DNA of 58,242 bases from the NCBI GenBank assembly GCA_964431075.1, contig CAYSID010000002.1, positions 1-58,242 on the forward strand, given 5' to 3'. This stretch comes from an uncultured Gammaproteobacteria bacterium (GTDB lineage Bacteria; Patescibacteriota; Microgenomatia; JAMCZE01). The translations under genes were made by a program, and so were the position numbers. Shown one piece after another: positions 3,416-57,131 of the stretch. The notes beneath the pieces are model-generated. The model searched no databases. It saw nothing but the letters and a program-made list of their open reading frames with translations, and was not told the DNA's origin. The first letter of the stretch is position 1, and every line of letters begins with the position of its first letter.

Positions 3416-3416
3416 C

Positions 3417-7079: not shown

Positions 7080-7136
7080 ATTTTCACCTACTCTCTTTTG
7101 TTATACTACACAGTTTTACTGAATTGTTACTGAATT

Positions 7137-8360: not shown

Positions 8361-8365
8361 GAATT

Positions 8366-9034
8366 TTAAATTACTTTTCCGTCCTTAATATGTATTATTC
8401 TTTGGGCATATTTGGCGATGTCTTCTTCATGAGTGATAACAACAATTGTGTGACCCTCGCTGTGCAATTTGTTAAAGATTTTCATAATTTCCTTGGCTTG
8501 GTTTGAAGCAATATTTCCCGTGGGCTCGTCGGCAAGAATTAACGCGGGGTTTAAAACCAGCGCCCGGGCGATGGCGACCCGCTGTTGTTGTCCGCCCGAT
8601 AGTTGATTGGACAAATGATCCATCCGGTCTTCAAGGCCAACCATCTTTAGATATTTTTTCGCCGTTAATTCCCGGTCTTCTTTGGGGAGACCGGCGTAAA
8701 CCATGGGCAACATCACGTTTTTTAAAGCGGTTGCCCGCGGCAGTAAGTTGTATGATTGAAAAACAAAGCCGATTTTGCGATTCCTGATGTTGGCAAGCTC
8801 ATCATCTGTTAAATTTTCAACGTTTTCCCCGTCCAAAATATATTTGCCGGAACTGGGTTTGTCCAATGCTCCGAGGATATGCATTAATGTCGATTTTCCC
8901 GATCCGGAGGGTCCCATAATCGCCACGAATTCCCCCCGGTTAATTTCAAAAGAAATGTCGGACAGAGCGATTGTTTTAACCGGGCTCGTCCCATAAATTT
9001 TGGAGATATTAATTATTTTGATAAGCGAAGTCAT
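8366..9034 (-). CDS. ABC transporter ATP-binding protein (MacB/LolD-like)
   Basis: Walker [10 protein letters not shown], signature [15 protein letters not shown], Walker [10 protein letters not shown]. Confidence 0.95.
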
Positions 9035-10217: not shown

Positions 10218-11172
10218 GAAAAGTTACCGTAAAGATTGTACCAGCCTCTTCCTGACTTTTTACTGTAATGTTGCCATTATGCGCTTTAACGATTTCTTTG
10301 GCAATAGCAAGCCCCAAACCAAAACCATTCCGACTTCGTGATTTTTCTGCCCGGTAGAAACGATCAAAAATATACGGCAAATCTTTTTCATCAATTCCGA
10401 CACCATGATCCTCAATCATAAACACATTATTAGCCAAATTAACAATAATTTTTTCCCCCGCGGGACTGTATTTAATCGCATTGTCTAAAAGAATTACAAC
10501 TAACTCTATTAAATTATTTTTGTCACCAATAACCGTTGAGTCTTTTAAGTTTTTAATTATTTTAATTTCTTTTTTTTTGGCTAACGGGGCAATTTTTTTA
10601 ATGGCTTCATTGACGATATCTTTTAAATTTATGTCGGTTAGGTTTAGTATCGGTTTTTGAAACTTTGCAAGTTTTAAAAGTGATTCGGATAAAAATTGCA
10701 GTTTATTCACTTCGGTGACGCTATCTTTGATAATTGATTTCGCTTCTGCCAGCGTCCCGGTTTTGTCTCTAAGGTAGACTTCAAAGGCTGTTTTTAAGGA
10801 CGTTAGCGGGGTTTTTAATTCGTGAGAGGCGTCGGAGATGAAGCGATTTTGTTCTTCAACCATGTCCTTTATCGGTTTTAGGGTCCTTCCGGCAAGAAGA
10901 TACCCGAATCCCCCCGAGGTTACTAAAATAATCGAGTTGATGATTATCAATGTGTATAAAACCCGCTGTTTTGTTTCGTCGAGGAGGTCGAGCATTGGCG
11001 ATGGGGGGGTCGGAATCAGGAAACGCCGTTCAAATCTTTGGCGCTGCATTCGTTCAAACCGCTCGACTTCATCGGAATATGATTTATAGATTATCGCGGA
11101 GAAGGACAGGCTCACCAGCATAATGATTAACAGGTACCAGGCGGTGAGTTTTAATCTTGTTTTGGTAAACAT
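10210..11172 (-). CDS. sensor histidine kinase
   Basis: Two TM helices. H box [12 protein letters not shown] box [10 protein letters not shown] boxes DHGVGI and [11 protein letters not shown]. Confidence 0.92.
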
Positions 11173-39176: not shown

Positions 39177-39249
39177 TCCTCTGTAGCTCAGCTGGTAGAG
39201 CGGCTCCCTGTTAAGGAGAAGGTCCGAGGTTCGAGTCCTCGCGGAGGAG
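39177..39249 (+). tRNA. tRNA-Asn (anticodon GUU)
   Basis: TCCTCTG-TA-GCTC-AGCTGGTA-GAGC-G-GCTCC-CTGTTAA-GGAGA-AGGTC-CGAGG-TTCGAGT-CCTCG-CGGAGGA-G. It has the same UCCUCUG 5' end as E. coli tRNA-Asn. Confidence 0.9.
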
Positions 39250-39546
39250 CTGAATTGGTCTTAATCTGACCATGTTGGCGGTCTTTAAGGCATTAAATAT
39301 TGGTGTGGGCTTTGCTTCAACAATTACTTTGTTATCCACAACGAACGGGAATTCTGATAGATTATCGAAACAACCAAGAAAGTCAGGAAAATTTTTCTTT
39401 AATTCTTCTAGCTTTGTGTATTTTGATAAATCTGCCGTTGCTTCATCAACCCAAAATGCATCTACTTCTCCGTCTGAAAAAGACCCGTATTCCTCAAGTG
39501 ATAATAAGTTCGGAATACTATATGTTTTCCTTAGATTAGGTAACAT
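39211..39546 (-). CDS. hypothetical protein (first ORF of the A+T-rich island; 3' end overlaps tRNA-Asn antisense)
   Basis: 111-aa ORF with no motif recognised. The last 13 codons are antisense to the tRNA, so the true end or the reality of the gene is uncertain. Confidence 0.35.
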   Translation of the reverse strand: MLPNLRKTYSIPNLLSLEEYGSFSDGEVDAFWVDEATADLSKYTKLEELKKNFPDFLGCFDNLSEFPFVVDNKVIVEAKPTPIFNALKTANMVRLRPIQLLREDSNLGPSP

Positions 39547-39724
39547 ATTTAGAAACGCGGGTTTATCAAAAAGTAAAGCAAGTTCTTGATAGTTAATATC
39601 CTTACTTGCACGAATATCAATCTTTAATATCGAAGATGGGCTTTATCGTTTTTCTTAATTTTCATAATTCTCAATTTATATTCTACAATAAAACGCCAAT
39701 TGATGTATAATTAAGAATAATTGA

Positions 39725-39937
39725 TTGACTATGAAGAAAGACGAAGTATCGGAACTATTAACTTTAGAAGAAGCTGCTAAAAAATTAAAGGTCAGCGAGC
39801 AGACTTTAAGGCGTTGGGATAACAGCGGCCATTTTAAAGCGGTAAGAGTTGGCACAAGGCGAGGCCTGGGTGATCGAAGATATCGGGTTAAAGACATTGA
39901 AAATTATACTAAGCAAAAAAATACAAAAAAAAGATAA
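39725..39937 (+). CDS. MerR/excisionase-type helix-turn-helix DNA-binding protein
   Basis: 70 aa. LLTLEEAAKKLKVSEQTLRRWDNSGHFKAVRVG...RRYRVKDIENY is the HTH_17/MerR-excisionase pattern. Confidence 0.75.
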   Translation: MTMKKDEVSELLTLEEAAKKLKVSEQTLRRWDNSGHFKAVRVGTRRGLGDRRYRVKDIENYTKQKNTKKR

Positions 39938-39982
39938 TTTACTAACGAGGAAAATAGAAAATTAAGAAAATAAAAGAAAATT

Positions 39983-42205
39983 ATGACAAATCAAAATAAG
40001 GCTTCTTCGGAAGCAGATGCCAGAATTATTGTTGACCGACTGCTTCGGGAAGCGGGCTGGGATATTGAAGACAAAAATCAGGTAACCACCGAGGAATCGA
40101 TTAAAGACGGCAGAGCTGATTATTTACTTCTTGATAGCCGAAGCCGGCCCTTGGCTGTTGTAGAGACAAAAAGGTTTTCCAAAGACCCATATACTGCCAA
40201 AGAACAGGCTGAAAATTATGCTAAAGAACTACTGGCTCCCTTTATCTTCCTTTCCAATGGCACCGATACCTACTTTTGGGATTACAACAAAGCTGATGCC
40301 CGTTTAGTTGATTCTTTTTTCTCCCGTTTTGATTTGGAAAGAATTGCTACTTTAAGAAAGTATCAGAAACCGCTATCTACGATCCCTGTTCTGGATAAGT
40401 TTTTCTTTAAAGGAAATGAGATAACGGTTAGACCTTATCAAAAAGAAGCCCTGCAAACGATAGATAAAGCATTAGGGGAAAATAAACGTCGTTTGTTAGT
40501 CGAAATGGCAACAGGCACAGGCAAGACTTTAGTGGCCGCGATGATGATTAAGAGACTGTTTCAGGCAGGATTGGTAGAAAGGGTTTTGTTTTTAGTTGAT
40601 AGGATTGAACTTGCCAATCAAGCAAAAGAAACTTTCGACGACTATCTTTCTGAATATCCCTCAATTGTTTTATATGGCGGGAAAAGGAGTAAAGAAGGCC
40701 AGATTGTTATTGGCACGCTTCCCACAATCCAATCTCAAATAGACGCTTTTACCAGCGGTTATTTTGATTTGGTAGTTACTGATGAATGTCATCGGTCAAT
40801 TTACAGCGTCTATCGCTCACTCCTTACCCATTTTGATGCCATCCATGTTGGCTTAACTGCTACCCCCAGCAATCTTATCGACAGAAACACCTATGAGTTT
40901 TTTAACTGCTGGAATCCTTTAACCAGAAAGGGAGAACCAACTTTTATCTATGGCATAAGGAAAGGGATAAATGATGGTTATCTGGCTCCTTACAAGGTTT
41001 ATCACGCCAGAAGCAAGATCTCGCTGGAAGGCATCAATTGGCAAGGAGAAGATTACGAACCGCAAGATTTGGAAAGAACGATCACGGTTGAAGACAGAAA
41101 TAAATTGTTTGTTCAGGAGTTTAAGGAAAACGAAGAAAAAAGAGGCGGCGATCATCCCAGAAAAACAATTGTCTTTGCCATCACTAAAAAACATGCGGCT
41201 CAACTGGCAAGATTTTTCAATGAAATGTACCCCGAATACAAAGGTAAGTACGCCGAGATTATTACTACCGATACTTTTGATCCCCAAAGAGCCATTAAAC
41301 GCTTTAAAAAAGAACCTTTACCTGTAATTGCGGTTTCGGTGGCCATGCTTGATACCGGTTTTGATTATCCGGCAGTAGAAAACCTGATGATGTGTCGTCC
41401 TACCCGTTCTCCTACTTTCTACCAGCAAATGAGAGGTCGAGGTTCCCGGCTTTGCCCGCAAGTCGGTAAAAAAGAATTCCTTATTTATGATTTTGTGGGT
41501 AATGCCGAATACTTTAATGATGAGGGTTACGATCCATTTGAGCAAAAGAAAGTTGCTACCAGAATGAAAGTTGAGGAAGTTGAAAAGGAAGAAATAACAG
41601 AAGAACAAATACCGGAAGCTATTGTTAGGCAATTTGTTACTATCCCCTTGGGTCAAGCCCGTGATGAGTGGATAGAAAGAAGATATATCGAGTTTGGACC
41701 GGAAGGAGAAAAAGTTGATGCCAGAGAATACAAAGATAGATTTGCTGAAGAAGTTAAGAAATTGGCTGATACCAATGAGATTGTGATTAAGCTCAGGCAA
41801 AAACAGGATGTAACTGATGATGAAATTCAAGAATTAGGGCAACTTCTCAATCACCCGGAATTCTTTTTCAATGAGAACAATTTAAGGCAAGCCTATGACC
41901 AGCCAACAGGCAATTTAGTTGATTTTGTTAAAAGCGCTTTAGGAATGCATAAGTTCCCCACCAGAGAAGAAAGAGTTAGTAGCGCTTTTGATGCCTGGAT
42001 TATCCAAAAGAATTTTGCTCCTGAACAAGTGCGGGTACTAAGAATGCTTAAGAATCAGTTCTTGGCAGGAAGTAAGGCGGATATTTCAGACTTTAACCGA
42101 CCACCGATTTCTCAATATGGTGGCTTACAGTACGCCATCAAAACTTTTGGTGAGGATGGTTTAAAACAAGTTGTTGATGATTTACAACAAGGAGTATTCA
42201 AATGA
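39983..42205 (+). CDS. hsdR: type I restriction enzyme R subunit (short HsdR with EcoEI-R-like C-terminus)
   Basis: N-terminal PD-(D/E)XK (DGRADYLLL...LAVVETKR). SF2 helicase Walker A EMATGTGKT, DEAH-like VTDECHRS, motif VI QMRGRGSR. Helical C-terminal domain. Confidence 0.9.
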   Translation: MTNQNKASSEADARIIVDRLLREAGWDIEDKNQVTTEESIKDGRADYLLLDSRSRPLAVVETKRFSKDPYTAKEQAENYAKELLAPFIFLSNGTDTYFWDYNKADARLVDSFFSRFDLERIATLRKYQKPLSTIPVLDKFFFKGNEITVRPYQKEALQTIDKALGENKRRLLVEMATGTGKTLVAAMMIKRLFQAGLVERVLFLVDRIELANQAKETFDDYLSEYPSIVLYGGKRSKEGQIVIGTLPTIQSQIDAFTSGYFDLVVTDECHRSIYSVYRSLLTHFDAIHVGLTATPSNLIDRNTYEFFNCWNPLTRKGEPTFIYGIRKGINDGYLAPYKVYHARSKISLEGINWQGEDYEPQDLERTITVEDRNKLFVQEFKENEEKRGGDHPRKTIVFAITKKHAAQLARFFNEMYPEYKGKYAEIITTDTFDPQRAIKRFKKEPLPVIAVSVAMLDTGFDYPAVENLMMCRPTRSPTFYQQMRGRGSRLCPQVGKKEFLIYDFVGNAEYFNDEGYDPFEQKKVATRMKVEEVEKEEITEEQIPEAIVRQFVTIPLGQARDEWIERRYIEFGPEGEKVDAREYKDRFAEEVKKLADTNEIVIKLRQKQDVTDDEIQELGQLLNHPEFFFNENNLRQAYDQPTGNLVDFVKSALGMHKFPTREERVSSAFDAWIIQKNFAPEQVRVLRMLKNQFLAGSKADISDFNRPPISQYGGLQYAIKTFGEDGLKQVVDDLQQGVFK

Positions 42206-43716
42206 GTAAAGTTTCAAAACAGGAATTACAGTCAGTTATTAACCAGATTTGCAACAAACTCTGGGCAGCGGGATTAACTAACCCCATTACCTATATTGAA
42301 CAGATTTCCTATTTCTTCTTTTTAAAGATGCTTGAGGAATGGGATAATCAGAAAGCCAATGAATCTAGACTTACCGGGAATAAAAATGGGTATGAATCAA
42401 TCTTTGAAAAGGAAAATGAGAAGTTCCGCTGGAGTGAGTGGACACATATTGCTGACAATACCAGGATGTTTAAATTCGTCCGTGACGAAGTGTTCCCTTT
42501 TATGGCAAACCTGCCCGGAACAAATGAAAATATCAGAAGGTTTTTTGCAGACGCTAGGTTTCAGATCCCTGATGGCGTGGTGCTTCGGGACGTCGTTGAT
42601 AAGCTAAGAGATATTTCTTTTATTGAACTGGACGCTGATGTTAAAGGTGATTTGTATGAATATCTTTTAAACCAGTTAACTACTTCTGGTAAAGCCGGAC
42701 AATTTAGAACTCCCAGACATATTATTCGCACCATAGTTCAATTGGTTAACCCTCAAATTGGAGAAACTGTTTTAGATCCTGCTTGCGGTACTGGTGGCTT
42801 TTTACTTGGAGCTTTTGAATACATAAAAACTTGTAACTCTGATCCCAGCAACACAACCGAATATCAAAATGGCAACGGACAGACAGTAAAAAAAGGCCCT
42901 GGAGATAAACTTTCTCCAACACAATGGCAATTTATGCAAACAGATGCTTTAACCGGATTTGATGTTGATGCTTCCATGGTGAAGATTGCCACCATGAACT
43001 TGATTTTGCATGGCTTGGAAAAATCTCAAATTATCAGACGAGATTCAATTGCGGGCAGTCCTGATGATTGGGATGAGCGAGAATTTGATATTGTACTTTC
43101 CAATCCGCCCTTTGCAGGTACTATTAACAAGGAAAGAGTTAAAAAGAACCTTCCGGTTCAGGCTACAGACACAACGATCCTTTTCCTAGGATTAATGATT
43201 GAAGGATTAAGGCAAGGCGGTAGAGCGGGGGTAGTTGTTAACGAAGGAGTTTTGTTCAACCGCAATAAAGCCGCTAAAGAGTTAAGACGATATTTGATGG
43301 ACAGAAGGAATTTAGTGGCGGTTGTTTCTCTCCCCGGTGGTGTTTTTCAACCATATTCGGGTGTCAAAACCAGTGTTTTGTTTTTCAATAACGATGGCAA
43401 GAAAACAGAAAAGGTTTGGTTTTATGATGTCCGCTTTGATGGTTTTGAATTGGCTACCCAAAGAAGACCATCTCCCGATAAGAACGATTTACCGGATTTG
43501 ATTTCCAAATGGAAAGACAAATCGGATTCAGAAAGAAGCTGGTCAGCCACCACAAAACAAATAGAAGAAAACGACTTTATCCTTTCAGCCTCTGCATACA
43601 GACCGATTACTGAAGATGAAACCCAACACCGAGACCCAAAAGAGATATTTAAGGAAATTAAGGAGTTAAATAAGGAGTCTCAAGAACAGTTAAAGAAAAT
43701 TGAAGAATTTATATGA
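42202..43716 (+). CDS. hsdM: type I restriction-modification N6-adenine DNA methyltransferase subunit
   Basis: HsdM N-terminal domain (LWAAGLTNPITYIEQISYFFFLKML), AdoMet motif I DPACGTGGFL, catalytic motif IV NPPFAG. ATGA overlap with hsdR. Confidence 0.95.
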   Translation: MSKVSKQELQSVINQICNKLWAAGLTNPITYIEQISYFFFLKMLEEWDNQKANESRLTGNKNGYESIFEKENEKFRWSEWTHIADNTRMFKFVRDEVFPFMANLPGTNENIRRFFADARFQIPDGVVLRDVVDKLRDISFIELDADVKGDLYEYLLNQLTTSGKAGQFRTPRHIIRTIVQLVNPQIGETVLDPACGTGGFLLGAFEYIKTCNSDPSNTTEYQNGNGQTVKKGPGDKLSPTQWQFMQTDALTGFDVDASMVKIATMNLILHGLEKSQIIRRDSIAGSPDDWDEREFDIVLSNPPFAGTINKERVKKNLPVQATDTTILFLGLMIEGLRQGGRAGVVVNEGVLFNRNKAAKELRRYLMDRRNLVAVVSLPGGVFQPYSGVKTSVLFFNNDGKKTEKVWFYDVRFDGFELATQRRPSPDKNDLPDLISKWKDKSDSERSWSATTKQIEENDFILSASAYRPITEDETQHRDPKEIFKEIKELNKESQEQLKKIEEFI

Positions 43717-44408
43717 GCTTAAATATTAATTTGATTGATACAATTTTGGCAATTGGTTCCGTCTCTGGATTATTAGTTTTACCTTATACGATTGTTCAAG
43801 CTTCCAAGAAAAGACCTCGGTTAAAATTTGACTTTTCAGGAATGAGTGGAAGCGGAGTAAAAAAAAGTGATGCCGTTGGTGAATATTACCGTTTTGAATT
43901 TTCTGGCACGATCAAAAATCGTTCCACAGAGACAAACTCAATTTCAAAGATTTATCTCGTTGTTTGGGCAGATAATAAAAAAAGAAATTCTGCCCTGAGG
44001 CTTGGTTTTGGCGGGGTTTTATTAGATTCAAGTAAAAATGTATTATCTTTACCTTTAGAATTGCCATCAAGAACAGGTAAAAAGCTGGAAATAATTTTTG
44101 AAATTCCAGTTACGGGCACATCAGACGAAAGACTACTTAAAGAGTTTATTCCTGTCGGTAATAGTGGTCGTTTTTATTTACCTAAGCACAAATATGAGCT
44201 TTGTTTTGAGGACACTGATGAAAACTTCTTTGATCAACAAGGTAGATTAAGAAATTTAAATGAAATTAACCTAAGATGGACTCTCCCCAACACAATAAAA
44301 GAATTACAAAAAGGCAATATTGCTCCGTTTTTAAAACATATGTTTCAGATACAAAAATCAAGAATATTATTTTCTATAAAACGAATTAGTTATCAGATAG
44401 GATTATGA
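43713..44408 (+). CDS. unknown membrane-anchored protein X1, inserted between hsdM and hsdS
   Basis: 231 aa with ATGA overlaps at both ends. N-terminal TM (IDTILAIGSVSGLLVLPYTIV), then a beta-rich domain (YYRFEFSGTIKNRSTETNSISKIYLVVW...LELPSRTGKKLEIIFEIP...YELCFEDTDENFF). No known family recognised. Confidence 0.7.
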   Translation: MSLNINLIDTILAIGSVSGLLVLPYTIVQASKKRPRLKFDFSGMSGSGVKKSDAVGEYYRFEFSGTIKNRSTETNSISKIYLVVWADNKKRNSALRLGFGGVLLDSSKNVLSLPLELPSRTGKKLEIIFEIPVTGTSDERLLKEFIPVGNSGRFYLPKHKYELCFEDTDENFFDQQGRLRNLNEINLRWTLPNTIKELQKGNIAPFLKHMFQIQKSRILFSIKRISYQIGL

Positions 44409-45562
44409 ATACTTGGCAAACTAAAAAATTAGGAGACATTACCGAAATTAATGGAGGAGGAACACCACCCACAAGCAAAACTGAATATTTCAGTGGCGAT
44501 ATACCATGGTTTACTCCTTCTGAAATTACTTCAGGTACAGTTTCAGTACTGAATAACAGTCAAAGACAAATTACAGAAGATGCGATGCGGTTTACAAAAG
44601 TAGCCGAACAAGGAACAGTTTTATTATCAAGCAGGGCAACGATTGGCAATGTTGGGATAGTATCTGATAGGTCAACTTATAACCAAGGAATAAAAGGATT
44701 AACCCCAAAAAAAGAATTAAGCCATTGGTATCTTGCATATTGGTTGTTAGCGAATAAAAAGAGGTTGGAAAGTCAATCTCATGGAACAACATTTAAAGAA
44801 TTGAGTACAACTGCCTTAAAAAAGTTTGATATTTCAGTTCCACCGCTTTCCATTCAACAACAAATAGTTGAGAAAATAAACGCAATCAGAAAATTGCAGG
44901 AATTAAATAATAAGGAAATTGAAAAAGCGGTGGAATTGTTTAAAACACAGCTTTCTAATTGTTTTAAATGGCAAGAGCAATGGAAAAAGATTAAGCTGGC
45001 AGAGATATGTGATGTGAGAGATGGTACGCATGACAGTCCAAAATACCAACCTTCTGGTATTCCACTCATAACATCAAAGAACTTGAAAGAAGATTTAATC
45101 GATTTTACAAATATCAATTACATTTCTGAAAAAGATCACCAACAAATAGTTAAAAGATCGTTTGTAGAGAATGGAGATATTCTTTTTGGGATGATTGGGA
45201 CAATAGGTAATCCCGTTATTGTTGATACTGAAAGAACGTTCAGCATTAAAAATGTCGGGTTAATAAAGTTCCCAAACAGAAAAATAGTTAACAATTTGTT
45301 TGTGAAGTATTTCCTTCAAAGTCCGTCGTTAGAAATAGAAATAAAAAGACTGTCGCGTGGAGGAACACAAAAATTTGTTTCGCTAGGAAATTTAAGAAAT
45401 CTTCTTGTGCCATTACCATCTCTAAAAGAACAGGAAAAAATTGCTATGGAGTTAAACAATATTAGACTTTTCAATTCCAAACTTAATTTAAAAGGGATTA
45501 AATTATCAGAACTTTTTGAAAGTGCTCTAAATAAATTTATGAAGAGAGAACTGATCAATTAA
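44405..45562 (+). CDS. hsdS: type I restriction-modification specificity subunit
   Basis: Two target-recognition domains (GGGTPPTSKTEYFSGDIPWFTPSEI and RDGTHDSPKYQPSGIPLITSKNL). They are separated and followed by the conserved helices PPLSIQQQIVEKI and PLPSLKEQEKIAMEL. Confidence 0.93.
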   Translation: MNTWQTKKLGDITEINGGGTPPTSKTEYFSGDIPWFTPSEITSGTVSVLNNSQRQITEDAMRFTKVAEQGTVLLSSRATIGNVGIVSDRSTYNQGIKGLTPKKELSHWYLAYWLLANKKRLESQSHGTTFKELSTTALKKFDISVPPLSIQQQIVEKINAIRKLQELNNKEIEKAVELFKTQLSNCFKWQEQWKKIKLAEICDVRDGTHDSPKYQPSGIPLITSKNLKEDLIDFTNINYISEKDHQQIVKRSFVENGDILFGMIGTIGNPVIVDTERTFSIKNVGLIKFPNRKIVNNLFVKYFLQSPSLEIEIKRLSRGGTQKFVSLGNLRNLLVPLPSLKEQEKIAMELNNIRLFNSKLNLKGIKLSELFESALNKFMKRELIN

Positions 45563-45565
45563 CCT

Positions 45566-46231
45566 ATGAATTATTGGCAAAGTTTACTCGATTTATCACA
45601 AGCAGTATTTTTCCCCCAGATATTGAACATTGTCAATGTTGTTTTGATATTGCTTACAGTCCTGGTGACTTATTTGTCATGGCATACTGCTAAAAGAGCG
45701 AACGAATTACAGTTACTTCCTCTTCTTGCTGTCTATTTTAGGGGTAAAGCCTTGAAAGATAGAACGATTAGGATACGAAATATTGGCAAGAGTCCAGCTT
45801 ACGATATAAAAATAGAGTCCTATCTGAACATTATTAAGGATATACAGCATGTGTGGCGATTAGATTTGTCTTTGAGTGGTACAAACGTCTTGGTGCCCGA
45901 CGAGGAGAAAGATTTAAAGATGAGGGCAACGGACAACGGGAAAGAAGCCGATATGTCAGAATTTATGGTTTTTCATCTTGACCCAGAAGAAGAACATAAG
46001 AGAGAAAGAGTTGGCCTATTGCTAACGTTTAGAAATGCGGAGGGAAATTATTACTATTCTGAGGTGGAAACTGGCGCAGGTGGTTTGTTCATAAAGCCTG
46101 CAAGAAAATATAACCTTTGGGGTAAGGCGTATGTAGGCTATAGACAATATTCGGAGAAAGTTTTATTGAAACTGTATGAATTTAAATGGAAATTTACTAA
46201 GCCTTATATTAAACAGCCAAAGAAGGCTTGA
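45566..46231 (+). CDS. unknown membrane-anchored protein X2
   Basis: 221 aa, starts 3 nt after the hsdS stop. N-terminal TM (ILNIVNVVLILLTVLVTYL), then RTIRIRNIGKSPAYDIKIES...VLVPDEEKDLKM...VGLLLTFRNAEGNYYYSEVE. The motif is shared with X3 and, more loosely, X1. Confidence 0.7.
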   Translation: MNYWQSLLDLSQAVFFPQILNIVNVVLILLTVLVTYLSWHTAKRANELQLLPLLAVYFRGKALKDRTIRIRNIGKSPAYDIKIESYLNIIKDIQHVWRLDLSLSGTNVLVPDEEKDLKMRATDNGKEADMSEFMVFHLDPEEEHKRERVGLLLTFRNAEGNYYYSEVETGAGGLFIKPARKYNLWGKAYVGYRQYSEKVLLKLYEFKWKFTKPYIKQPKKA

Positions 46232-46243
46232 TAAAAAATAATT

Positions 46244-47548
46244 ATGAAAGCACAGGATAAACCAAAATATGTTCAAGAGGCACGAGAGTTATATGGTTCA
46301 CTTGATGTAGATGCGTTGATTGATGACCCAAATAATTTAAAAACACTTGAGAAAATTAGTCGCCTGATAGCTATTTTTACTAATTTTTCCTATAACGACG
46401 GACAAGACTTGAAAGAATTACTATGTGAGTTCCAAAAATGGGCGAGGCGAAGTACGAGCATCGGTACTATAAGAAATAGGGCTACCGATATGCTCCAGTT
46501 TATTATTCAAAAAATAGAAGAAATGGATATTTATGTGATTGAAGAACCAATTAGGAAAAAACAAGAAAAAATTGTAAAAAGCTTGAAGGATGAAAACTTA
46601 TGGATGCAATCATCCCTAGAAGGTAAGGATTTACATATTTTGGTTGGAGAGAGAAATGCTAAAGCGGGTGAGCACGTCCATTTAATCAGCGATTCAGAAA
46701 CTGGCGAAATTAGAGTTGATGCTGACGATAAAACCCCCGATGAGCTTATAGAAAGAGTCGTTAGTATTACTACAAAACACGGCTCAACAATAGGGATTTC
46801 ACAATACGGAGTAAAAACAACAATGGAGTTTATCAATAAAGATACAACAGAAGACAAAGACCCTCCGATTTTATATGCCACTGGAATAAGACGAAGTGGC
46901 GGACCTCAAGGCCATTTTGATTACATAACGATTAAAAATGTTGGGAAAAATATCGCATTAGATATTCATTGGGGTATAAGGGCATTTGCCTATGAATGGC
47001 GACCATCAGAAGAGCCTTTTGAATTAGAACCAAATAAGGAAAAAGAAGTTGTTTTTCCCACTTCTTCCGAAAGAGTATTTAAAGAAATTATTCCAGAACT
47101 AAATGTAATAATGGAATATAAGGATGTAAATAACAAATCTTACTTTACCAGAAGGGAATTAAATCAACTAAAAGTTCCTTCGGGGGCATTTTATGAATTG
47201 AAAGCCGACACTTTCCACCCTCCTTCTATACTAATTGATGATGGATTACGATTGATTTCTGAACCTGTTCGCAATGGCGATAGAACTGAGGCAACTTTTA
47301 AGATTAATACCGAAGAAGGGGGTAAAGAAGTAAAGATCGGCTTAAGTGGCAGTCTTATCGCTGTTTTTGGTTTTGAGAATGACGGGTTAGTCAAACAAGC
47401 AATATTAGAATTAGCTCATAGATTGATTAGAAAAATGGTTAAATCGAAGACCCTATCTGACTATTGCTTTACTACTCACGATTTACCCGAACACCATATA
47501 AGTGGATTTGAAGCCTATGTACAATTAAGGAATAACATTACTTATTAA
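46244..47548 (+). CDS. unknown 434-aa protein X3
   Basis: Helical N-terminus. The central block FDYITIKNVGKNIALDIHWGI...ELEPNKEKEVVF...LNVIMEYKDVNNKSYFTRRE parallels X2. No catalytic motif recognised. Confidence 0.7.
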   Translation: MKAQDKPKYVQEARELYGSLDVDALIDDPNNLKTLEKISRLIAIFTNFSYNDGQDLKELLCEFQKWARRSTSIGTIRNRATDMLQFIIQKIEEMDIYVIEEPIRKKQEKIVKSLKDENLWMQSSLEGKDLHILVGERNAKAGEHVHLISDSETGEIRVDADDKTPDELIERVVSITTKHGSTIGISQYGVKTTMEFINKDTTEDKDPPILYATGIRRSGGPQGHFDYITIKNVGKNIALDIHWGIRAFAYEWRPSEEPFELEPNKEKEVVFPTSSERVFKEIIPELNVIMEYKDVNNKSYFTRRELNQLKVPSGAFYELKADTFHPPSILIDDGLRLISEPVRNGDRTEATFKINTEEGGKEVKIGLSGSLIAVFGFENDGLVKQAILELAHRLIRKMVKSKTLSDYCFTTHDLPEHHISGFEAYVQLRNNITY

Positions 47549-47549
47549 A

Positions 47550-48236
47550 ATGAATATGACTGATAACATTATTAAACTTTCGCCATCAACAATCAGTCTA
47601 TTTATGGAATGCCCGAGGTGTTTTTGGTTGCAGTTTAACAAAAATATCCATCGGCCAAGAGGGATATTTCCCTCACTTCCTGGAGGAATGGATGGAGTGA
47701 TTAAAAAATACTACGACACATATCGAAGACAAGGCAAACTACCACCAGAAGTTGATGGAAAATTAACTGGCAAACTTTTTGCAGATGAGAAATTATTAAA
47801 ATCGTGGCAAAGCAACTGGGAGGGGATTAAATATTTTGACAAAGAATTAAACGCTCTAATGAAAGGTGTCTTAGATGATTGTTTGGTTGATGGTGATACA
47901 TATATTCCCCTTGATTACAAAACGAGGGGTTATGATTTAAAAGAAGATTCTACTTCCTATTATCAGCACCAGCTTGATATTTACTGTTACCTGCTTGTAA
48001 AAAACGGTTATAAAGTTGCCAATTACGCCTATTTGGTTTATTACTTCCCTAAATTAGTAAAAGATAACGGGCAGGTCGAGTTTAATGTTGAACCCAAAAA
48101 AGTAGACACTGATATTAAACATGCCGAGCAATTATTTAAAGATGCTGTTACCTGTTTAAGAGGTCCAGAACCCAAAAGGCACAGCGACTCCTCGTGTGAG
48201 TTCTGTAATTGGGGTTTTGAAGCCTTTGGAGAATAA
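47550..48236 (+). CDS. Cas4-like PD-(D/E)XK nuclease with Cys cluster
   Basis: 228 aa. LSPSTISLFMECPRCFWL (N-terminal Cys), GVLDDCLV...YIPLDYKT (D...DxK), QHQLDIYCYLL (QxxxY), and C-terminal C-x16-CEFC (putative Fe-S ligands). Confidence 0.8.
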   Translation: MNMTDNIIKLSPSTISLFMECPRCFWLQFNKNIHRPRGIFPSLPGGMDGVIKKYYDTYRRQGKLPPEVDGKLTGKLFADEKLLKSWQSNWEGIKYFDKELNALMKGVLDDCLVDGDTYIPLDYKTRGYDLKEDSTSYYQHQLDIYCYLLVKNGYKVANYAYLVYYFPKLVKDNGQVEFNVEPKKVDTDIKHAEQLFKDAVTCLRGPEPKRHSDSSCEFCNWGFEAFGE

Positions 48237-48240
48237 AAAT

Positions 48241-50643
48241 ATGGATATACAGAAAATAAAAATTAAAGGTGATTATAAATTAGCAGATATTGTTCATGAT
48301 ATTGAAAAGGGAATCTTGCGGATTCCTCAATTTCAACGGGAATTTGTTTGGGATAAGCCCAGGGTAATAAAACTACTCGAAAGTATTTATCTTGAGTATC
48401 CGATAGGCTCTTTCTTCTTTTGAGATGCACCCAGAAAATACTATGATTTCTACCGGGATATTGCGGAGTTGGGACTGCCCAAACCGGACAAGTATGAGAA
48501 GATCGTTTTTATCCTTGATGGTCAGCAACGGCTTACTTCTCTTTATGTTACTGTTAAAGGTTTAACTTTATATGGCCGGGATTATAAAAAAATTTGTTTT
48601 GATTTAGATGAAAAAGTCTTTGTTGATCGGGCTCCTGATAATCAACGATTTGTTTCTTTAAGTGACCTATTATCCAGTGAACGTTACAGCGAAGTTTATG
48701 AAGGCTTAACTCCCGCAAGACGCAAGGCTGTTTATGAATGTTTGCAGCGATTTAACAATTATCCCTTTTCTGCGATTGATGTTCGGGATAAAGAACTGGA
48801 TGAAGTCTGTGATATTTTTGAACGGATTAATCAGGGTGGACAAAGGTTAAACCTTTTTGATTTGATTTCTGCCAGCACCTGGACGCCTGATTTTGATTTG
48901 AGATTAGCGGTTAAAGGAGAAAACGAGAGATTAAAGACAAAAGGATTTGGGGAAATTGACAATGAAGTTTATCTTCAGGCACTTTCTCTTATTGCCAAAG
49001 GCTCTTGTACCAGGCCGGTCCAACTGCAGCTTCGAGCTGAGGATGTGACTAAGTTTTGGCAGGACACAATTGATTCAATCTCTTTGGCAATAGATTATCT
49101 TAAAAGCTATTTAGGTGTAGTTAACTCCGTTTTTATTCCTTACCGAAGCATGATTGCTCTAGTAGCCTATCTTTTTTATAAAGCCAAGGGCAGGAGTTTA
49201 GACCATGAACAATCAGAGCTTTTAGCCCAGTGGTTTTGGCAAACTACTTTTTCTGAGAGGTACAGCGCCTCAATTTTAACTTTGATGACTGAGGATAAGA
49301 AACTGATGGATAAGATAGCTTCGGGGACAAGCGTTGGTATTAAATACCTCTTTGAGCTGGATATTGATACCCTGATTCAAATCCGCATGTACCGAAAGTC
49401 AGCTATCAAAAATGGTGTACTTTGTTTACTGGTTAAAAGAGAGCCTAAACATTTTAAAAACAACATTACCTTACCGCTTAAAGATGGCTATTATTCAGAC
49501 TTTAATAGTTCTGAAAAGCATCATATTTTCCCTAAATCCATTATCCAAAAAAATTATCCGATGATCATGGTTCACTCGCTTCCCAACTTCTGCTTTATCC
49601 CGGCAGAATTAAACAAAGAAATTTCCAACAAAAAGCCCAGCAAATATTTTGAAGAATACCAAGAAAGCAATCCTGATTTTCTTGATGCTTTAAAAACTCA
49701 CCTAATCAAATATGACGAGTCAATAAAACAGGACGATTATATGTCTTTTTTGGCTTCAAGGGCTGCCTTGATACTGGAGGAAATAACCAGAGCCACAGGC
49801 TCTAAAATTGGCCGGGTAGTAGCTGATAATGTTAACAAAGCCATTGATGATATTGAAAAAAGATTACGAGATTTTATTGATAAAAAGATGTTGGTTAAAA
49901 ATCCTGACTATTGGAAAAAATCTATGCCAAGCGATATTGTTGGCGTGGTTCGTCAAAGAGTAAATGAGTATCTATCCAAAGACCCTTCCAAGACGATTAA
50001 TGACTTTGGTTCAAGAGAGCTTCTAGATTTTATGGACATTATGGATTATTCCAAAGTCGTTCTTTTCAACTGGGATGTCTTTGGCTCTATTTTTAGATCA
50101 AAAGCGGAGACCGAGAAACGATTTTTAAACCTTAAGGAGTTTAGAAATGCAGTTAAACACGGGAGGGATGAAATTGTGCCTTTCATTCAAAAAGAGGGAG
50201 AAGCGGCATTGGAGTGGCTTTCTATTATTTTAGAGGAAGCGGAGAAAAATCCAGTAAGGTCTGTTAAGCCTGCCGAAAGCGAAGAAGAAACCATTAGTCG
50301 GGTTAAGAATGACTTTGTACAGAAAGCCGTTAGGCTTATATCGGAATGGATTGAGAAAGAATATTCTGATGGCAAATTAACGATAAAAAGGGGCAATGCT
50401 GGTTCGCACCGAAGCATAATGCAAGGCAAAAAGCTTATTCTCTTCTACTACTTTGCTGGCAATTGGGTTTATGGAGAACTACAGGCGACCACTCCTGATG
50501 AGCTTAAAATATTACAGGACAAGCTGTCTAAACCCGAATCAGTACTTGATAGAAAAAGTAAATATGGGCAGGTAAGATTCCATATGATTAACGAAGACGA
50601 TTTAGAGTTAGTCAAGGATATTGTAAAAAATAGAGTTAAATAA
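48241..50643 (+). pseudogene. GmrSD-like DUF262 + DUF1524 + HEPN fusion gene interrupted by one in-frame TGA (48421-48423)
   Basis: Track ORFs 48196..48423 and 48469..50643 are in the same frame. The read-through sequence is ...IPQFQREFVWDKPRVIKLLESIYLEYPIGSFFF*DAPRKYY...ILDGQQRLTSLY (DUF262/ParB-like). SSEKHHIFPKS...NFCFIPAELN is DUF1524 His-Me-like. EFRNAVKHGR is HEPN Rx4H (50143-50160). The TGA sits where this family normally has Trp. Confidence 0.75.
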
Positions 50644-50752: not shown

Positions 50753-51232
50753 ATGAAAAAGAATCTTCTTATCCCTGTTGTTGCTGTTGTTGGGCTAGTC
50801 GTTGTGGTCGGGATTTATTTGGTTTCTCAAGGATCCAAACAAACACAACCGTCATCAGAAACTGTCACGCGGGAACAGACAACGAAAAAAGACACCATTA
50901 CGAATAAGGCCGGATGTACGGTTGGTACAACCAAAACGGTGGTCGGTCTAAAATATCAAGTTACCGGACAAGAAACATATACCATCCAAGGCAAATCCTA
51001 TGATCTGTGTTGCTGGGAGACCGGCGAAGGCACGAGGCAGAAAAAAATCTGCAGTGATATCGAATCCGGGCCGGTAGGCTACAATTACGGTGTTCTTTTT
51101 GAGAACAATAAGAATACCGGTAGCCTTTACAAGTCAATGGAAACATACCGGGACGGTAACAACGTTTGCCAGCAATTTTATGAGGCAGATGGATCTGCCG
51201 GTCCGTTAAATTGCAAAGAAAGGTTAAATTGA
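50753..51232 (+). CDS. secreted Cys-containing hypothetical protein
   Basis: 159 aa. Strong RBS GAGGAGGTGA, N-terminal signal/TM, six Cys in the mature part. Confidence 0.6.
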   Translation: MKKNLLIPVVAVVGLVVVVGIYLVSQGSKQTQPSSETVTREQTTKKDTITNKAGCTVGTTKTVVGLKYQVTGQETYTIQGKSYDLCCWETGEGTRQKKICSDIESGPVGYNYGVLFENNKNTGSLYKSMETYRDGNNVCQQFYEADGSAGPLNCKERLN

Positions 51233-54685: not shown

Positions 54686-55162
54686 GTGAGAAAAAAAGGA
54701 TTCACGTTGGTTGAGATGCTGGTGGTGATGGGGATTTCCGCGATTTTAGTGGCTTTTTCCACCGTTAATATCTTGGGGCTTCAGCAAAGAACACAATTGA
54801 GTTCAAAACTGGACACCCTGGTTACCGATTTTCGGGCGCAGCAAGTCAGGGCGATGATCGGAGAGGCGGATGACAGCGGGAATATTGTTGCCAGAGGAAT
54901 TCATTTTGATAGCAACCGTTATGTCCTTTACCGCGGATCGGTTTACAATCCGTCCGATCCTTACAATTTCACCGTTAATCTTGAGGGAGAGCGGTTTGTC
55001 AATATTAATTTCCCCAACGCTAATCTGGTTTTTTCTCCGGGCTCCGGCGAGCCGGTTAATTTTTCTCCCGGGGAGGACAGTGTCACTCTCCAACAGGAGT
55101 CCGGAGGAATCCAGAAAACCGTTACTGTTAATAAGTATGGGACAATTATTTCGGTTGATTAG
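54686..55162 (+). CDS. type IV pilin / pseudopilin-like protein
   Basis: VRKKG|FTLVEMLVVMGISAILVAF is a class III (prepilin) signal with Glu at +5. I prefer the GTG at 54686 to the track start at 54635. Confidence 0.8.
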   Translation: MRKKGFTLVEMLVVMGISAILVAFSTVNILGLQQRTQLSSKLDTLVTDFRAQQVRAMIGEADDSGNIVARGIHFDSNRYVLYRGSVYNPSDPYNFTVNLEGERFVNINFPNANLVFSPGSGEPVNFSPGEDSVTLQQESGGIQKTVTVNKYGTIISVD

Positions 55163-57131
55163 AGACGAGACCGGGCAATCATTGGTGGAGCTCTTACTGG
55201 TATTTGCCCTTTCGGCGATTTTGTTGCCGGCGGTTTTGACCGGGGTATTGTCGTCGCGTGAAGGTAAGTCCCAGCAGAAAGAACGGGCGAGGGCGTTGGA
55301 AATTCTGCGGGAGATGAACGAATCCGTAAGGAGTGTCAGGCGTAAGGGGTGGGATAGTTTTGCTGTGAACGGCAGTTATTATCCGGTCATTTCCGGCAAT
55401 AATTGGAGTCTGGTAAACGGGGTGGCCACCATTTCCGGCTTCACCCGGCAGATTTTAATCTCTGATGTTTTTCGGGATAACGATGGTAAAATTTCGTCGC
55501 AAGCCGGCATCGTTGATCCCTCAACTAAAAAAGTCGTTTCCCGGGTATCATGGACCGAACCGTATCCATCTTCAGTGGAGTCAGTCGCATATTTAACCCG
55601 GTATTTGGACAATCTTTCCGTAATTCAAACGACGGAAGCCGATTTCTTGGCCGGGACGACAAACGGGACTTCAGTAACTAATACGGCCGGGGGAGAAGTA
55701 ACTCTTGGGGCTGGGGCTCAAGCCAATTGGTGCGCTCCTCAGGACGCCATTCGGGAAACCTTGACTTTGCCCAAGCGGGGGAATGCCATATACGCCAAAC
55801 AAGGCTCGGCGTATGTGGCCAGCGGCGACGGGACCGAGGGGGTGACCTTTGTTAATGTGGGGATAAGCAATCCTCCATTACCCGCTTTTCCCGACGCCTC
55901 AATTGTGGGGACATATTCTTCCGGCTATAAAACCAACGCGGTCTTTTCTGACGGCACCTATGTTTATCTGGCCACGGACAACGGTTCGGAGCAGGTGGTG
56001 ATTTTGGATTTAACCAACCAGCCGTATGCTAAAGTGGGAACAGTGACAATCGCCGGCGGTAATCCCGGAAATAGCGTCTTTGTCGCCGGAAACATTTTGT
56101 ATGTGACTTCGGGTGACCGGCTTTATACTTATGATGTCACGGTTAAAACAGGTCCGCACAGTACCCCGTTGGGGTCGCGGGCGATGTGGTTTAATTTTGG
56201 CAGTCAGCCGCAAGCGCGTCAGGTGGTGGTGGTGGGGAATTATGCATTTGTCGGGACCGGCAACAGTCTTTTTGGGTTGCAAAAATTTTTAATAAGCAAT
56301 GGGGGCAGAACGATTACTTTTAAAGGAGCTTCAAATCTAACCTGGAACCAGCAGTCGCAGGGTTTAGCAGTTAACTCTTCTGGAACCCGGGCCTACGTGG
56401 CTTTTAATCAGGGTGCCGGAATTTTTTCCAAAGGTTTTTTTATCGTGGATGTTTCCACCGACCCGCCGTGGTGGTGGCCGTTTCTTCCCATTAAGGGGTC
56501 TTATAATGCCGGAGCCACCGACCCTCGAGGCATGGCCATCGGAACGGGGAACAAAGCTATGATCGTGGGAATTGAGGGGTCGCAGCAGTATCACGTTATT
56601 GATATTACCGGTGATAACCCGGTTTATTGCGGTGGTTTAGCTGTTGCCAGCGGAGTTTACGGTGTGGCATCGGTGCTTGAAGAAGATGGTGATGCTTATT
56701 CTTATCTTATTACCGGGGAATCTCAAGACCAATTTAAAATAATTCAGGGCGGATCGGGTGGACGTTATGCTCCGGCAGGAACTTTTGAATCCGACCCGGT
56801 TAGCCTGGGACACGATACCGCCTTCAACCGCTTAACGGCTACCGTTGACCAGTCACCTCCCGTGACGGGAATTTCTCTGCAGGTGGCAGTTGCTTCCCAA
56901 GTTTCCGGAAGTTGCGCCGGCGCCGATTATACTTACGTGGGCCCGCAAGCCAGTACCAGTGCTTATTTTACTCCTGTGGCCGCATCCATTTCCGCAACCA
57001 TCCCTTTCGGAATTTATCCGCCAAGCTATCAAAATCCCGCCCGTTGTTTTCGGTACAAACTTTTTCTTACTTCAACGGACAACAATCAGACACCGGTTTT
57101 CTATGATATGACCGTGAATTATTCGCCATGA
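55137..57131 (+). CDS. large (664-aa) pilin-like protein with repeated beta-propeller-type (LVIVD-like) modules
   Basis: MGQLFRLIRDETG|QSLVELLLVFALSAILLPAV is a prepilin-type N-terminus. It is followed by six repeats of the form G-x-x-a-Y-V-A...h-x-h-h-D-h-T/S-x-P (55780-56620). The track ORF is over-extended to 54870. Confidence 0.8.
   Translation: MGQLFRLIRDETGQSLVELLLVFALSAILLPAVLTGVLSSREGKSQQKERARALEILREMNESVRSVRRKGWDSFAVNGSYYPVISGNNWSLVNGVATISGFTRQILISDVFRDNDGKISSQAGIVDPSTKKVVSRVSWTEPYPSSVESVAYLTRYLDNLSVIQTTEADFLAGTTNGTSVTNTAGGEVTLGAGAQANWCAPQDAIRETLTLPKRGNAIYAKQGSAYVASGDGTEGVTFVNVGISNPPLPAFPDASIVGTYSSGYKTNAVFSDGTYVYLATDNGSEQVVILDLTNQPYAKVGTVTIAGGNPGNSVFVAGNILYVTSGDRLYTYDVTVKTGPHSTPLGSRAMWFNFGSQPQARQVVVVGNYAFVGTGNSLFGLQKFLISNGGRTITFKGASNLTWNQQSQGLAVNSSGTRAYVAFNQGAGIFSKGFFIVDVSTDPPWWWPFLPIKGSYNAGATDPRGMAIGTGNKAMIVGIEGSQQYHVIDITGDNPVYCGGLAVASGVYGVASVLEEDGDAYSYLITGESQDQFKIIQGGSGGRYAPAGTFESDPVSLGHDTAFNRLTATVDQSPPVTGISLQVAVASQVSGSCAGADYTYVGPQASTSAYFTPVAASISATIPFGIYPPSYQNPARCFRYKLFLTSTDNNQTPVFYDMTVNYSP

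Follow-up and report, generated by a model that had tools for sequence, protein, structure and literature searches.

Are the genes that lie inside a type I restriction-modification (R-M) operon parts of one machine, or cassettes that travel with it? The question is raised by a locus on the 58,242-nt contig CAYSID010000002.1 (assembly GCA_964431075.1), which in its full length is referred to here as the window and whose source is apparently an uncultured bacterium of the candidate phyla radiation (CPR)/Patescibacteria. On the + strand, between positions 39725 and 50643, a small helix-turn-helix (HTH) gene is followed by hsdR, hsdM, X1, hsdS, X2, X3, a gene for a Cas4-like nuclease and a GmrSD-like gene with a HEPN-like region (Table 1). 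The original prediction regarded these nine genes as a single, obligatorily co-expressed system in which X1, X2 and X3 belonged to no recognised family. We consider it probable, though far from certain, that the locus is instead a horizontally mobile mosaic defence operon, served by a single promoter, in which X1–X3 are independent passenger cassettes and not R-M subunits.

X1, X2 and X3 are absent from curated families

None of the three proteins matches a curated family in Pfam, PADLOC or NCBIfam, and profile searches of PDB sequences were empty for all of them. A PHROGs scan of X1–X3 returned two marginal matches only; X1 had none and X2 matched phrog_11802 weakly (1.4e-3). The structural models of X2 and X3 (AlphaFold2, AF2; predicted local distance difference test, pLDDT, 78 and 75, respectively) were compared by Foldseek with the PDB and, for X3, also with BFVD. 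The structures retrieved were all generic sandwiches of the Ig-like kind (adaptin ear, ApaG, arrestin-like), with TM-scores of at most 0.38. The view that these proteins lie outside known families was therefore upheld: neither the profile searches nor, for X2 and X3, the structure searches linked them to a housekeeping or a known defence family.

Among 5.8 billion clustered proteins there are 129 homologues of X3, 36 of X2 and 19 of X1, and an exhaustive hidden Markov model search of 1.84 billion proteins (1.84e9) gave 190 cluster representatives for X3. Nearly all homologues of X1–X3 are metagenomic or come from Patescibacteria metagenome-assembled genomes (MAGs). A phage origin of X2 and X3 was rejected, as they have no relatives in IMG/VR (2.9 million viral contigs). 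Comparison of X1–X3 with orthologues at 65–76% identity gave nonsynonymous divergences (dN) of 0.17–0.24 (0.18 for X1) with saturated synonymous divergence (dS); the sole computable ratio, that of X3, is about 0.1. This argues that all three are real genes under purifying selection, a statement that is qualitative only since dS is saturated.

X1 and X2 are both predicted to cross the membrane once. The basic residues that follow their transmembrane (TM) helices suggest, by the positive-inside rule, an N-out/C-in topology with cytoplasmic C-terminal domains. X2 has a weak hhalign match to the first sandwich of the C-terminal part of X3 (E 2e-4, probability 46%), and profile comparisons of X1 with X2 and of X1 with X3 gave no signal. 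A shared beta-sandwich origin of the three was considered and homology is not claimed, only a similar build.

X3 is assembled from exchangeable modules

X3 consists of three modules, N, M and C, each of which occurs independently according to BLAST, Pfam and sub-profile searches. The proteins in hand, in which some single-module entries represent gene fragments, comprise 60 with the complete N-M-C order, 82 with C only, 55 with M only, 27 in which another domain stands between N and C (N-other-C), 22 with N only, 13 M-C and five N-M. The middle of the N-other-C proteins is TIR_2 or Mrr_cat. Other fusions have the C module on the C-terminal side of AbiEii, NTP_transf_8 or AAA_14 together with DUF4143, and the N module also precedes a weak phospholipase D (PLD)-like region (PLDc_2, E 2.3e-3, below the cutoff). 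Family-wide, M retains two histidines (H131 and H146) and the motif TGEIR. A profile of the M domain alone found nothing among PDB sequences, and a Pfam scan of 33 M sequences gave scattered chance matches only.

The M domain (HxxIG...HLI...TGEIRID) is also found as a free-standing, mobile unit in proteins of 100–410 aa (P0252, P0262, P0261, P0286 and about 50 others), none of which has a Pfam assignment. A common type has about 180 aa, with an unrelated helical N-terminus of about 90 aa.

A further combination connects X3 with X1. A 356-aa protein encoded in locus L062, and also in L063 (related loci carry L numbers here), has the N module of X3 followed by a TM helix and then by an X1-like domain; the hhalign probabilities are 99.7% to X3-N and 98% to X1. 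Its gene lies 3′ of genes for a 906-aa methyltransferase and a 410-aa protein of no assigned family. Judged by these profile alignments, the fusion is a Rosetta-stone link between X1 and the X3 family, and it places a TM/X1-like unit in the region where relatives have enzymatic effectors.

The same backbone carries different cassettes

The backbone order HTH_17-hsdR-hsdM-[slot A]-hsdS-[slot B]-PD-(D/E)XK-GmrSD is met again in MAGs of Patescibacteria, slot A being the position between hsdM and hsdS and slot B that between hsdS and the PD-(D/E)XK gene. The window has X2 and X3 in slot B, where other operons have Shedu, or X2 with OLD. Four loci illustrate this exchange (percentages are identities to the window). 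L015 reads HTH-hsdR (89%)-hsdM (85%)-215-aa TM protein-hsdS-X2 (74%)-OLD nuclease-PDDEXK-GmrSD. L021, from a Nealsonbacteria genome, reads hsdR-hsdM-80 aa-116 aa-X1 (76%)-hsdS-Shedu SduA-PDDEXK-GmrSD, the 80- and 116-aa products being small proteins with two TM helices; X1 thus occupies the same hsdM-hsdS slot as in the window. L001 (UBA6130) has HTH-hsdR (91%)-hsdM-234 aa-hsdS-97 aa-X3 (71%), with X3 last. Finally, L027 has another type I system in the order hsdM-hsdS-hsdR, followed by GmrSD (85%)-c12-X3 (73%).

Small membrane proteins such as those of L015 and L021 recur in CPR R-M operons. No homology of these proteins to X1 or X2 was detectable, and the same holds for the TM-beta proteins c161 and c468 from equivalent slots.

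The gene order recurs in part in other genomes: the backbone and each of X1–X3 were found again, but the exact nine-gene combination only in this strain. A single obligatory system was not borne out. Each of X1, X2 and X3 is found apart from the other two and with other R-M types, sister operons have Shedu or OLD at the position of X3, the Cas4-like protein is only about 30% identical to its counterparts, and the GmrSD-like gene is broken (see below).

The island appears to be mobile. The tRNA-Asn(GTT) gene in its left flank, outside the operon, probably marks an insertion hotspot, and the GC content falls from ~0.42–0.47 to 0.33–0.41 across 39–51 kb. At an identity of 90% or above, hsdR has 13 relatives; the flanking genes for EF-P and the type II secretion system (T2SS) ATPase T2SS-E are near-singletons. 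The spread of hsdR, the dip in GC content and the adjacent tRNA-Asn gene together point to horizontal spread of the island. No att-type direct repeats were found around it.

X2 and X3 are found with several kinds of R-M system

Scans of genomes and metagenomes gave 42 non-redundant X3-family genes, half of them informative (21, for which 3 kb or more of upstream sequence is available) and half on short contigs (21). Recognised R-M genes are present in the co-directional run upstream at 11 of the 21 informative loci, or 12 if the MmeI-type locus L054 is included, and a fragment of an R-M gene lies directly 5′ of the X3-family gene on four of the 21 short contigs. At least five kinds of R-M system are represented: type I EcoAI-like, type I HindI-like, type III, a PLD-SNF2 protein with an Eco57I/TaqI_C methyltransferase, and MmeI. 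The other X3 loci with annotated neighbours have defence-type genes instead (SLFN/AlbA_2, DUF5677, reverse transcriptase, helicases), and in L013 and L041 the arrangement is reduced to HTH_17-X3.

X2 behaves similarly. It follows hsdS in the window, L015 and L017 and a type IIG enzyme in L019, and it ends a type III operon, Res-DUF8168-Mod-DUF4145-X2, in L074/L075. No R-M gene is adjacent to it in L072, and L035 has HTH-X2-X3. The gene 3′ of X2 differs from locus to locus and may be X3, OLD, DUF3800 or SLFN/AlbA_2. As far as gene order can tell, X1–X3 are embedded genes, since they are nested among core R-M genes in a context that recurs (X1 in the window and L021; X2 and X3 in the window, and within other R-M operons or at their ends).

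Two further groups of genes were noticed in these neighbourhoods. A two-gene R-M-like pair, present in L009, L010, L011, L053 and L057, encodes a PLD-nuclease/SNF2-helicase of ~1,055–1,115 aa and an Eco57I/TaqI_C-type methyltransferase of ~1,080–1,240 aa. It is headed by an HTH_17 open reading frame (ORF) in L011 and L057, and the X3-family gene comes next except in L010, where two small ORFs intervene. The protein c12, of ~240 aa and without a Pfam match, has an N-terminal TM helix and a long charged tail that is probably coiled-coil. Its gene lies directly 5′ of X3-family genes in L027, L040 and L059 and is separated from one by three ORFs in L014.

The R-M backbone and the Cas4-like nuclease

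The assignments of the remaining genes (HTH, type I R, M and S subunits, PD-(D/E)XK Cas4-like nuclease and GmrSD with a HEPN-like region) stood at the domain level with Pfam, PADLOC and NCBIfam. HsdR is 89–91% identical in amino acid sequence to its orthologues from Patescibacteria MAGs. Its near full-length match to NF046051 of NCBIfam (type IB EcoAI/FtnUII; 325.9 bits, E 5.8e-97) is under the 550-bit cutoff; by its sequence HsdR is a relative of the EcoAI family that does not reach the equivalog threshold. HsdS is only 31–52% identical to its orthologues, in operons that are otherwise 80–90% identical, as expected because the target-recognition domains (TRDs) are variable. With HsdR, HsdM and an HsdS with two predicted TRDs encoded together, the system is classed as type I.

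The Cas4-like protein matches phrog_31195 (8.9e-42) and has no relatives in GenBank phages. A PDDEXK_1 gene occupies the same position before GmrSD in L015 and L021. An assignment to CRISPR Cas4 was rejected in favour of a generic PDDEXK_1 nuclease (TIGR00372, 30.7 bits against a 65-bit cutoff). No cas families appeared in Pfam scans of the operon and the immediate flanking ORFs, the rest of the window being unscanned and no search for CRISPR arrays having been made. A MADS system was likewise rejected: MAD1 scored 16.5 bits (cutoff 80), MAD2 134 (720) and MAD5 49.8 (400), and no further mad genes were found. The PADLOC matches to mad1/2/5 reflect generic HTH, methyltransferase and S similarity.

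Operon layout and promoter

The first eight of the nine + strand ORFs are as originally described, but the ninth, GmrSD/HEPN, is interrupted by a TGA codon. All junctions were verified on the sequence. ATGA overlaps join hsdR to hsdM (42202), hsdM to X1 (43713) and X1 to hsdS (44405). Short gaps separate hsdS from X2 (3 nt, 45562/45566), X2 from X3 (12 nt, 46231/46244), X3 from the Cas4-like gene (1 nt, 47548/47550) and the latter from GmrSD (4 nt, 48236/48241). We likewise saw no convincing internal terminator: the operon has only three weak + strand matches, and terminator-like matches on both strands number 15 against a shuffle expectation of 9.6 ± 3.5.

A sigma-70-like site (TCTACA-18-TATAAT, 39682–39711), bordered by CAATTG/TAATTGAT motifs, lies directly 5′ of the HTH ORF. 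Alignment of the upstream regions shows that a block, GTATAATTAA-N5-(C/T)AATTGAT, is kept 5′ of the HTH_17 gene in four operons (window, L015, L001 and L035), and the window has an additional CAATTGATG copy immediately 5′ of the -10 element. The block may be an operator for the HTH protein and, by analogy with the regulator RptR discussed below, suggests autoregulation. An HTH_17 ORF also stands at the head of related operons in L001, L002, L011, L015, L035, L013, L041 and L043, and its product is probably the transcriptional regulator of the island.

Between the island and the genes for the T2SS/type IV pilus is a 159-aa ORF whose Shine-Dalgarno sequence (GGAGGTG) is strong and whose N-terminal segment is hydrophobic. 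No family match was obtained for this ORF, which is probably a member of the pilus cluster and not of the operon. A 753-aa ORF within that cluster has no Pfam match at E<1e-3.

The GmrSD-like gene has a nonsense codon

Read from its ATG at 48241, the GmrSD-like gene has an in-frame TGA at 48421–48423 (codon 61, Trp61 to stop), and the ORF list accordingly shows it in two pieces, 48196/48241–48423 and 48469–50643. In the alignment the TGA falls on the invariant tryptophan of GSFF(F/I)W. Intact orthologues of about 800 residues are 78% (L015), 85% (L027) and 50% (L021) identical and all have Trp at this site; over the first 110 residues the L015 protein has only one other difference from the window. 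Three contigs of the same strain from other samples, identical at 100% of nucleotides over their full lengths of 6.8–18 kb, have the same TGA. An assembly error was therefore rejected and the stop is a real allele of the strain. Reassignment of TGA was judged unlikely, as hsdR, hsdM, X1 and X2 all terminate with TGA.

The part of the gene 3′ of the stop has a dN/dS of ~0.06 in comparison with L015, with no relaxation. Inactivation would therefore be recent, or readthrough or re-initiation may still allow some low-level expression of the gene; the TGA might mark a knockout of very recent date, or it might be a leaky stop by which a toxic nuclease is throttled. Identical-strain contigs from other samples start exactly at 39558, about 300 bp past the tRNA-Asn gene, and two end at 48721, inside GmrSD. 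These assembly breaks suggest population heterogeneity at the left edge of the island and within GmrSD.

The downstream fragment matches GmrSD_N (Pfam, 1.5e-13), and IPQFQREFVW and LDGQQRLTS are present in the translation. With its QR/DGQQR motifs the predicted N-terminal DUF262 domain is that of the GmrSD family; the ORF itself is not intact. Pfam gave no match to the DUF1524 His-Me finger at E<0.01, and a conserved block, EKHHIFPK...NFCFIPAELNKE, resembles H...N...N by eye. The HEPN_Swt1 match (2.7e-4, 21.7 bits) is under the 27.5 cutoff, PADLOC PDC-M34B matches residues 531–642 (3.5e-10), and the HEPN-like motif RNAVKH is kept in the orthologues. Further PADLOC matches of this protein are PDC-M55C (4e-46) and HEC-05 (BrxU family, 9e-40). 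A PDC-M55 multi-gene system was rejected, since none of the nine operon proteins, nor the downstream 159-aa ORF, matches PDC-M55A/B.

Table 1. Coordinates of the features in the window and in related loci
Sequence	Feature	Position	Strand	Description
Window	tRNA-Asn(GTT)	39177..39250	+	Left flank; ARAGORN, Rfam
Window	Promoter-like site	39682..39725	+	-35 TCTACA, -10 TATAAT (39706-39711), 18-nt spacer; consensus scan
Window	Promoter block	39697-39725
Window	HTH_17 (MerR/excisionase-like)	39725..39937	+	First ORF, TTG start; one gene caller starts at 39731; Pfam HTH_17 2.2e-11; PADLOC mad1 1.2e-10
Window	hsdR	39983..42205	+	Nuclease N-domain, SF2 helicase; Pfam ResIII, HSDR_N, Helicase_C, EcoEI_R_C; PADLOC REase_I 1.8e-88
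Window	hsdM	42202..43716	+	N6-adenine methyltransferase subunit; Pfam N6_Mtase 2.5e-58, HsdM_N; PADLOC MTase_I 2.7e-154
Window	X1	43713..44408	+	231 aa, predicted single-pass membrane protein (TM ~5-30, then KKRPR; hydropathy), between hsdM and hsdS
Window	hsdS	44405..45562	+	Two target-recognition domains; Pfam Methylase_S in two stretches 3e-49; PADLOC Specificity_I 1.2e-57
Window	X2	45566..46231	+	221 aa, predicted single-pass membrane protein: TM helix 16-49, Ig-like beta-sandwich 54-176, basic C-terminal helix 184-208
Window	X3	46244..47548	+	434 aa, soluble; modules N (helical, 1-100), M (small beta, 105-203), C (tandem beta-sandwich + helices, 205-432)
Window	Cas4-like PD-(D/E)XK nuclease	47550..48236	+	CxxC...CxxC cysteines; Pfam PDDEXK_1 3.8e-11
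Window	GmrSD-like type IV restriction gene	48241..50643	+	DUF262 with DGQQR, His-Me-like motif, HEPN-like Rx4H motif RNAVKH, C-terminal domain
Window	159-aa ORF	50753-51232		Between island and T2SS/type IV pilus genes
Window	753-aa ORF	54870-57131		In pilus/T2SS cluster
L015	Promoter block	~4150-4215
L001	Promoter block	~3800-3865
L035	Promoter block	~1290-1350
L061	Small membrane protein	2873-3601		TM + beta; type III mod/res
L015	Small membrane protein	8174-8821		hsdM/hsdS slot
L021	Small membrane proteins	9400-9997		Two 2-TM proteins before X1
L062	X3-N/X1-like fusion	9994-11064		356 aa
L014	c12	7064-7780
L027	c12	9250-9990

Discussion

In the reading that we favour, the HTH_17 regulator would head an EcoAI-like type I R-M system that methylates host DNA and cuts unmodified invaders, and at the 3′ end would come a PD-(D/E)XK nuclease and, against modified DNA, a type IV enzyme of the GmrSD/HEPN kind, the latter with a nonsense codon here. 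X3 is most likely a self-contained sensor-effector, with N and C in sensing or regulatory roles and M at the place where relatives have TIR or Mrr effectors. X1 and X2 are most likely membrane-targeting effectors or sensors of the abortive-infection or exclusion type. As passengers inside the R-M operon these genes would be co-expressed and co-transferred with it, and a layered defence would therefore result.

Several points weigh against this reading. The link of X1–X3 to defence is drawn from context and from domain swaps in relatives. About 40% of the informative X3 loci have no recognised R-M gene directly upstream, and the AbiEii-C relative that was examined has no R-M linkage. The related loci are mostly metagenomic contigs of one broad lineage, the Patescibacteria, and shared ancestry inflates the recurrence. 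The role of M as effector is deduced from its position; AF2 models this domain with low confidence (pLDDT 25–66), and the two histidines and TGEIR are its only features conserved across the family, without a recognisable catalytic fold. Polycistronic transcription is read from the sequence alone. X1 and X2, lastly, could equally be accessory factors of the R-M enzymes.

This last idea, that X1 and X2 are membrane-anchored accessory or regulatory R-M factors that would tether the methylase or restriction complex to the membrane at the site of DNA entry or moderate restriction after transfer to a new host, is in our view unlikely. It agrees with the single N-terminal TM helix and following basic residues of both proteins, which suggest a cytoplasmic C-terminal domain, with the modelled Ig-like sandwich of X2, a fold typical of protein-binding domains, and with the position of X2 directly after the specificity or methyltransferase gene in R-M operons of three types. 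Non-homologous TM proteins of similar build occupy the X1 slot of L015 and lie between mod and res in L061. However, X2 occurs without an adjacent R-M gene in L072 and as HTH-X2-X3 in L035, neither protein has sequence similarity to any known R-M subunit, and the fusion of an X1-like domain to the X3 N module, where relatives have TIR or Mrr, points to an effector role. We give little credence to the integrated nine-gene system, in which the type I enzyme and the two nucleases (Cas4-like and GmrSD) would have X1–X3 as obligate partners, for example as PrrC-like guards that fire on R-M inhibition. The tight translational coupling, with ATGA overlaps on both sides of X1, the occurrence of X1 between hsdM and hsdS in two lineages, the strong bias of X2 and X3-family genes to the 3′ ends of R-M operons and the precedent of PrrC speak for it. 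Yet the full combination is confined to this strain, each of X1, X2 and X3 is found without the others beside type I (two families), III, IIG and PLD-SNF2/methyltransferase systems, no R-M gene is adjacent in L013, L041, L035 and L072, and stand-alone Shedu or OLD fills the same slot in sister operons. Such free movement would not be expected of a guard that is specific to one enzyme; a sensor that responds to failed restriction in general may show it.

It would also be conceivable that X1–X3 are unrelated island cargo, such as addiction modules, surface or competence proteins or degenerate phage genes, whose position in the operon is functionally meaningless. The mobility of the island and its tRNA neighbour, the generic nature of beta-sandwich folds and the type IV pilus/T2SS genes immediately downstream are in keeping with this, but on many unrelated contigs each gene is again found specifically within R-M or defence operons or at their ends, relatives have the hallmark immune domains TIR, Mrr, AbiEii and a weak PLD-like region, the viral contigs hold no relatives of X2 or X3, and purifying selection appears strong. 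We regard unrelated cargo as very improbable, and the mosaic operon with passenger cassettes remains the reading that we prefer.

PrrC, a close comparison, combines an ABC-ATPase-like protein with an anticodon nuclease in a type Ic hsd locus, and is held by EcoprrI. As with PrrC/EcoprrI, the window has extra genes within a type I R-M operon, which would be co-expressed with it as a second defence line; unlike PrrC, X1–X3 are of another architecture and are tied to no single R-M type. A PrrC-type nuclease was rejected, as X1–X3 have no match in PADLOC, Pfam or NCBIfam. Since they are not confined to one R-M type, a latent complex in the manner of PrrC is not indicated. The GmrSD-like gene, for its part, resembles through its predicted DUF262 domain the known GmrSD-family (DUF262 + His-Me) type IV enzymes that lie in or beside modification-based systems and cover phages with modified DNA that escape R-M. 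It differs from them as a single protein of ~800 aa with an added HEPN-like region and a C-terminal domain, by its nonsense codon, and by its place 3′ of the PD-(D/E)XK gene and after hsdS instead of between hsd genes.

X3 shares with the effector repertoires of the Avs, CBASS and Thoeris types the joining of conserved non-catalytic modules to swappable domains, here TIR, Mrr, nucleotidyltransferase and TM. In contrast to these systems the X3 family is without an NTPase/STAND, a cyclase or a SIR2/ThsA-type module. Membership of X3 in Avs, CBASS or Thoeris is not supported, and N, M and C have no detectable relatives in sequence or structure.

That hsd loci harbour extra effectors, as the original prediction noted for PrrC, is well documented: further cases are the rlo genes, TgvAB and DarTG2, and the phenomenon has been surveyed as 'guilt-by-embedding'. 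Embedded defence genes and first-ORF regulators have been described (PMC11411939, PMC12255303, bioRxiv 10.1101/2024.01.29.577857), and PMC11411939 cites the rlo genes of Campylobacter and homologues of GmrSD in type I loci. The nearest regulatory parallel is the RptR-DarTG2-type I R-M island of enteropathogenic Escherichia coli (EPEC), where a small DNA-binding protein encoded by the first ORF represses the single promoter of a type I R-M system with an embedded defence module; RptR is a four-helix protein of 79 aa from Gammaproteobacteria, and the interior of the hsd locus is presented there as a hotspot at which defence cassettes recombine (PMC12255303). The window has the same small DNA-binding first ORF, a single candidate promoter and a type I R-M system with embedded unrelated genes. 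It differs in its HTH_17/MerR-like first ORF, in its putative CAATTG-type operators and in its passengers, and the regulation proposed here is putative. The survey of Payne et al. counted 3,231 embedded families (bioRxiv 10.1101/2024.01.29.577857). X1–X3 represent the same phenomenon as its PDC/HEC candidates; unlike these, they match none of the 5,027 models of PADLOC-DB v2 (0/5,027), a set that takes in the PDC and HEC families. Defence genes embedded in hsd loci are therefore known, and what is new are three families, the three-module build of X3 with its effector swaps, and the exchange of cassettes at two slots of a CPR type I operon.

A more ambitious proposal would be that the X3 modules and membrane proteins of the X1/X2 type form a hitherto unrecognised R-M-coupled immune layer that is widespread in CPR, in which N docks on or monitors R-M complexes of several types and, after failure or inhibition of restriction, releases swappable effectors (M, TIR, Mrr or a pore of the TM/X1-like kind). 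We consider this a long shot. If true, PrrC, until now the sole worked example, would be one case of a general 'guard of R-M' mechanism.

Comparison of the sister operons shows, in a clean natural case, how cassettes are exchanged at two fixed positions within a type I R-M operon. The absence of X1–X3 from PADLOC, Pfam and NCBIfam means that current models miss these Patescibacteria/CPR-type families. With ~190 cluster representatives the X3 family is of small size and well delimited, and its N-TIR-C and N-Mrr-C relatives are natural controls that are easy to assay. If X1–X3 are not defence genes, the locus would be an ordinary defence island. Their contexts and domain partners recommend them as candidate new antiviral genes, not as components of a single nine-gene machine, and, should they prove to be defence genes, three unclassified families would be added to the immune genes that ride in R-M operons.

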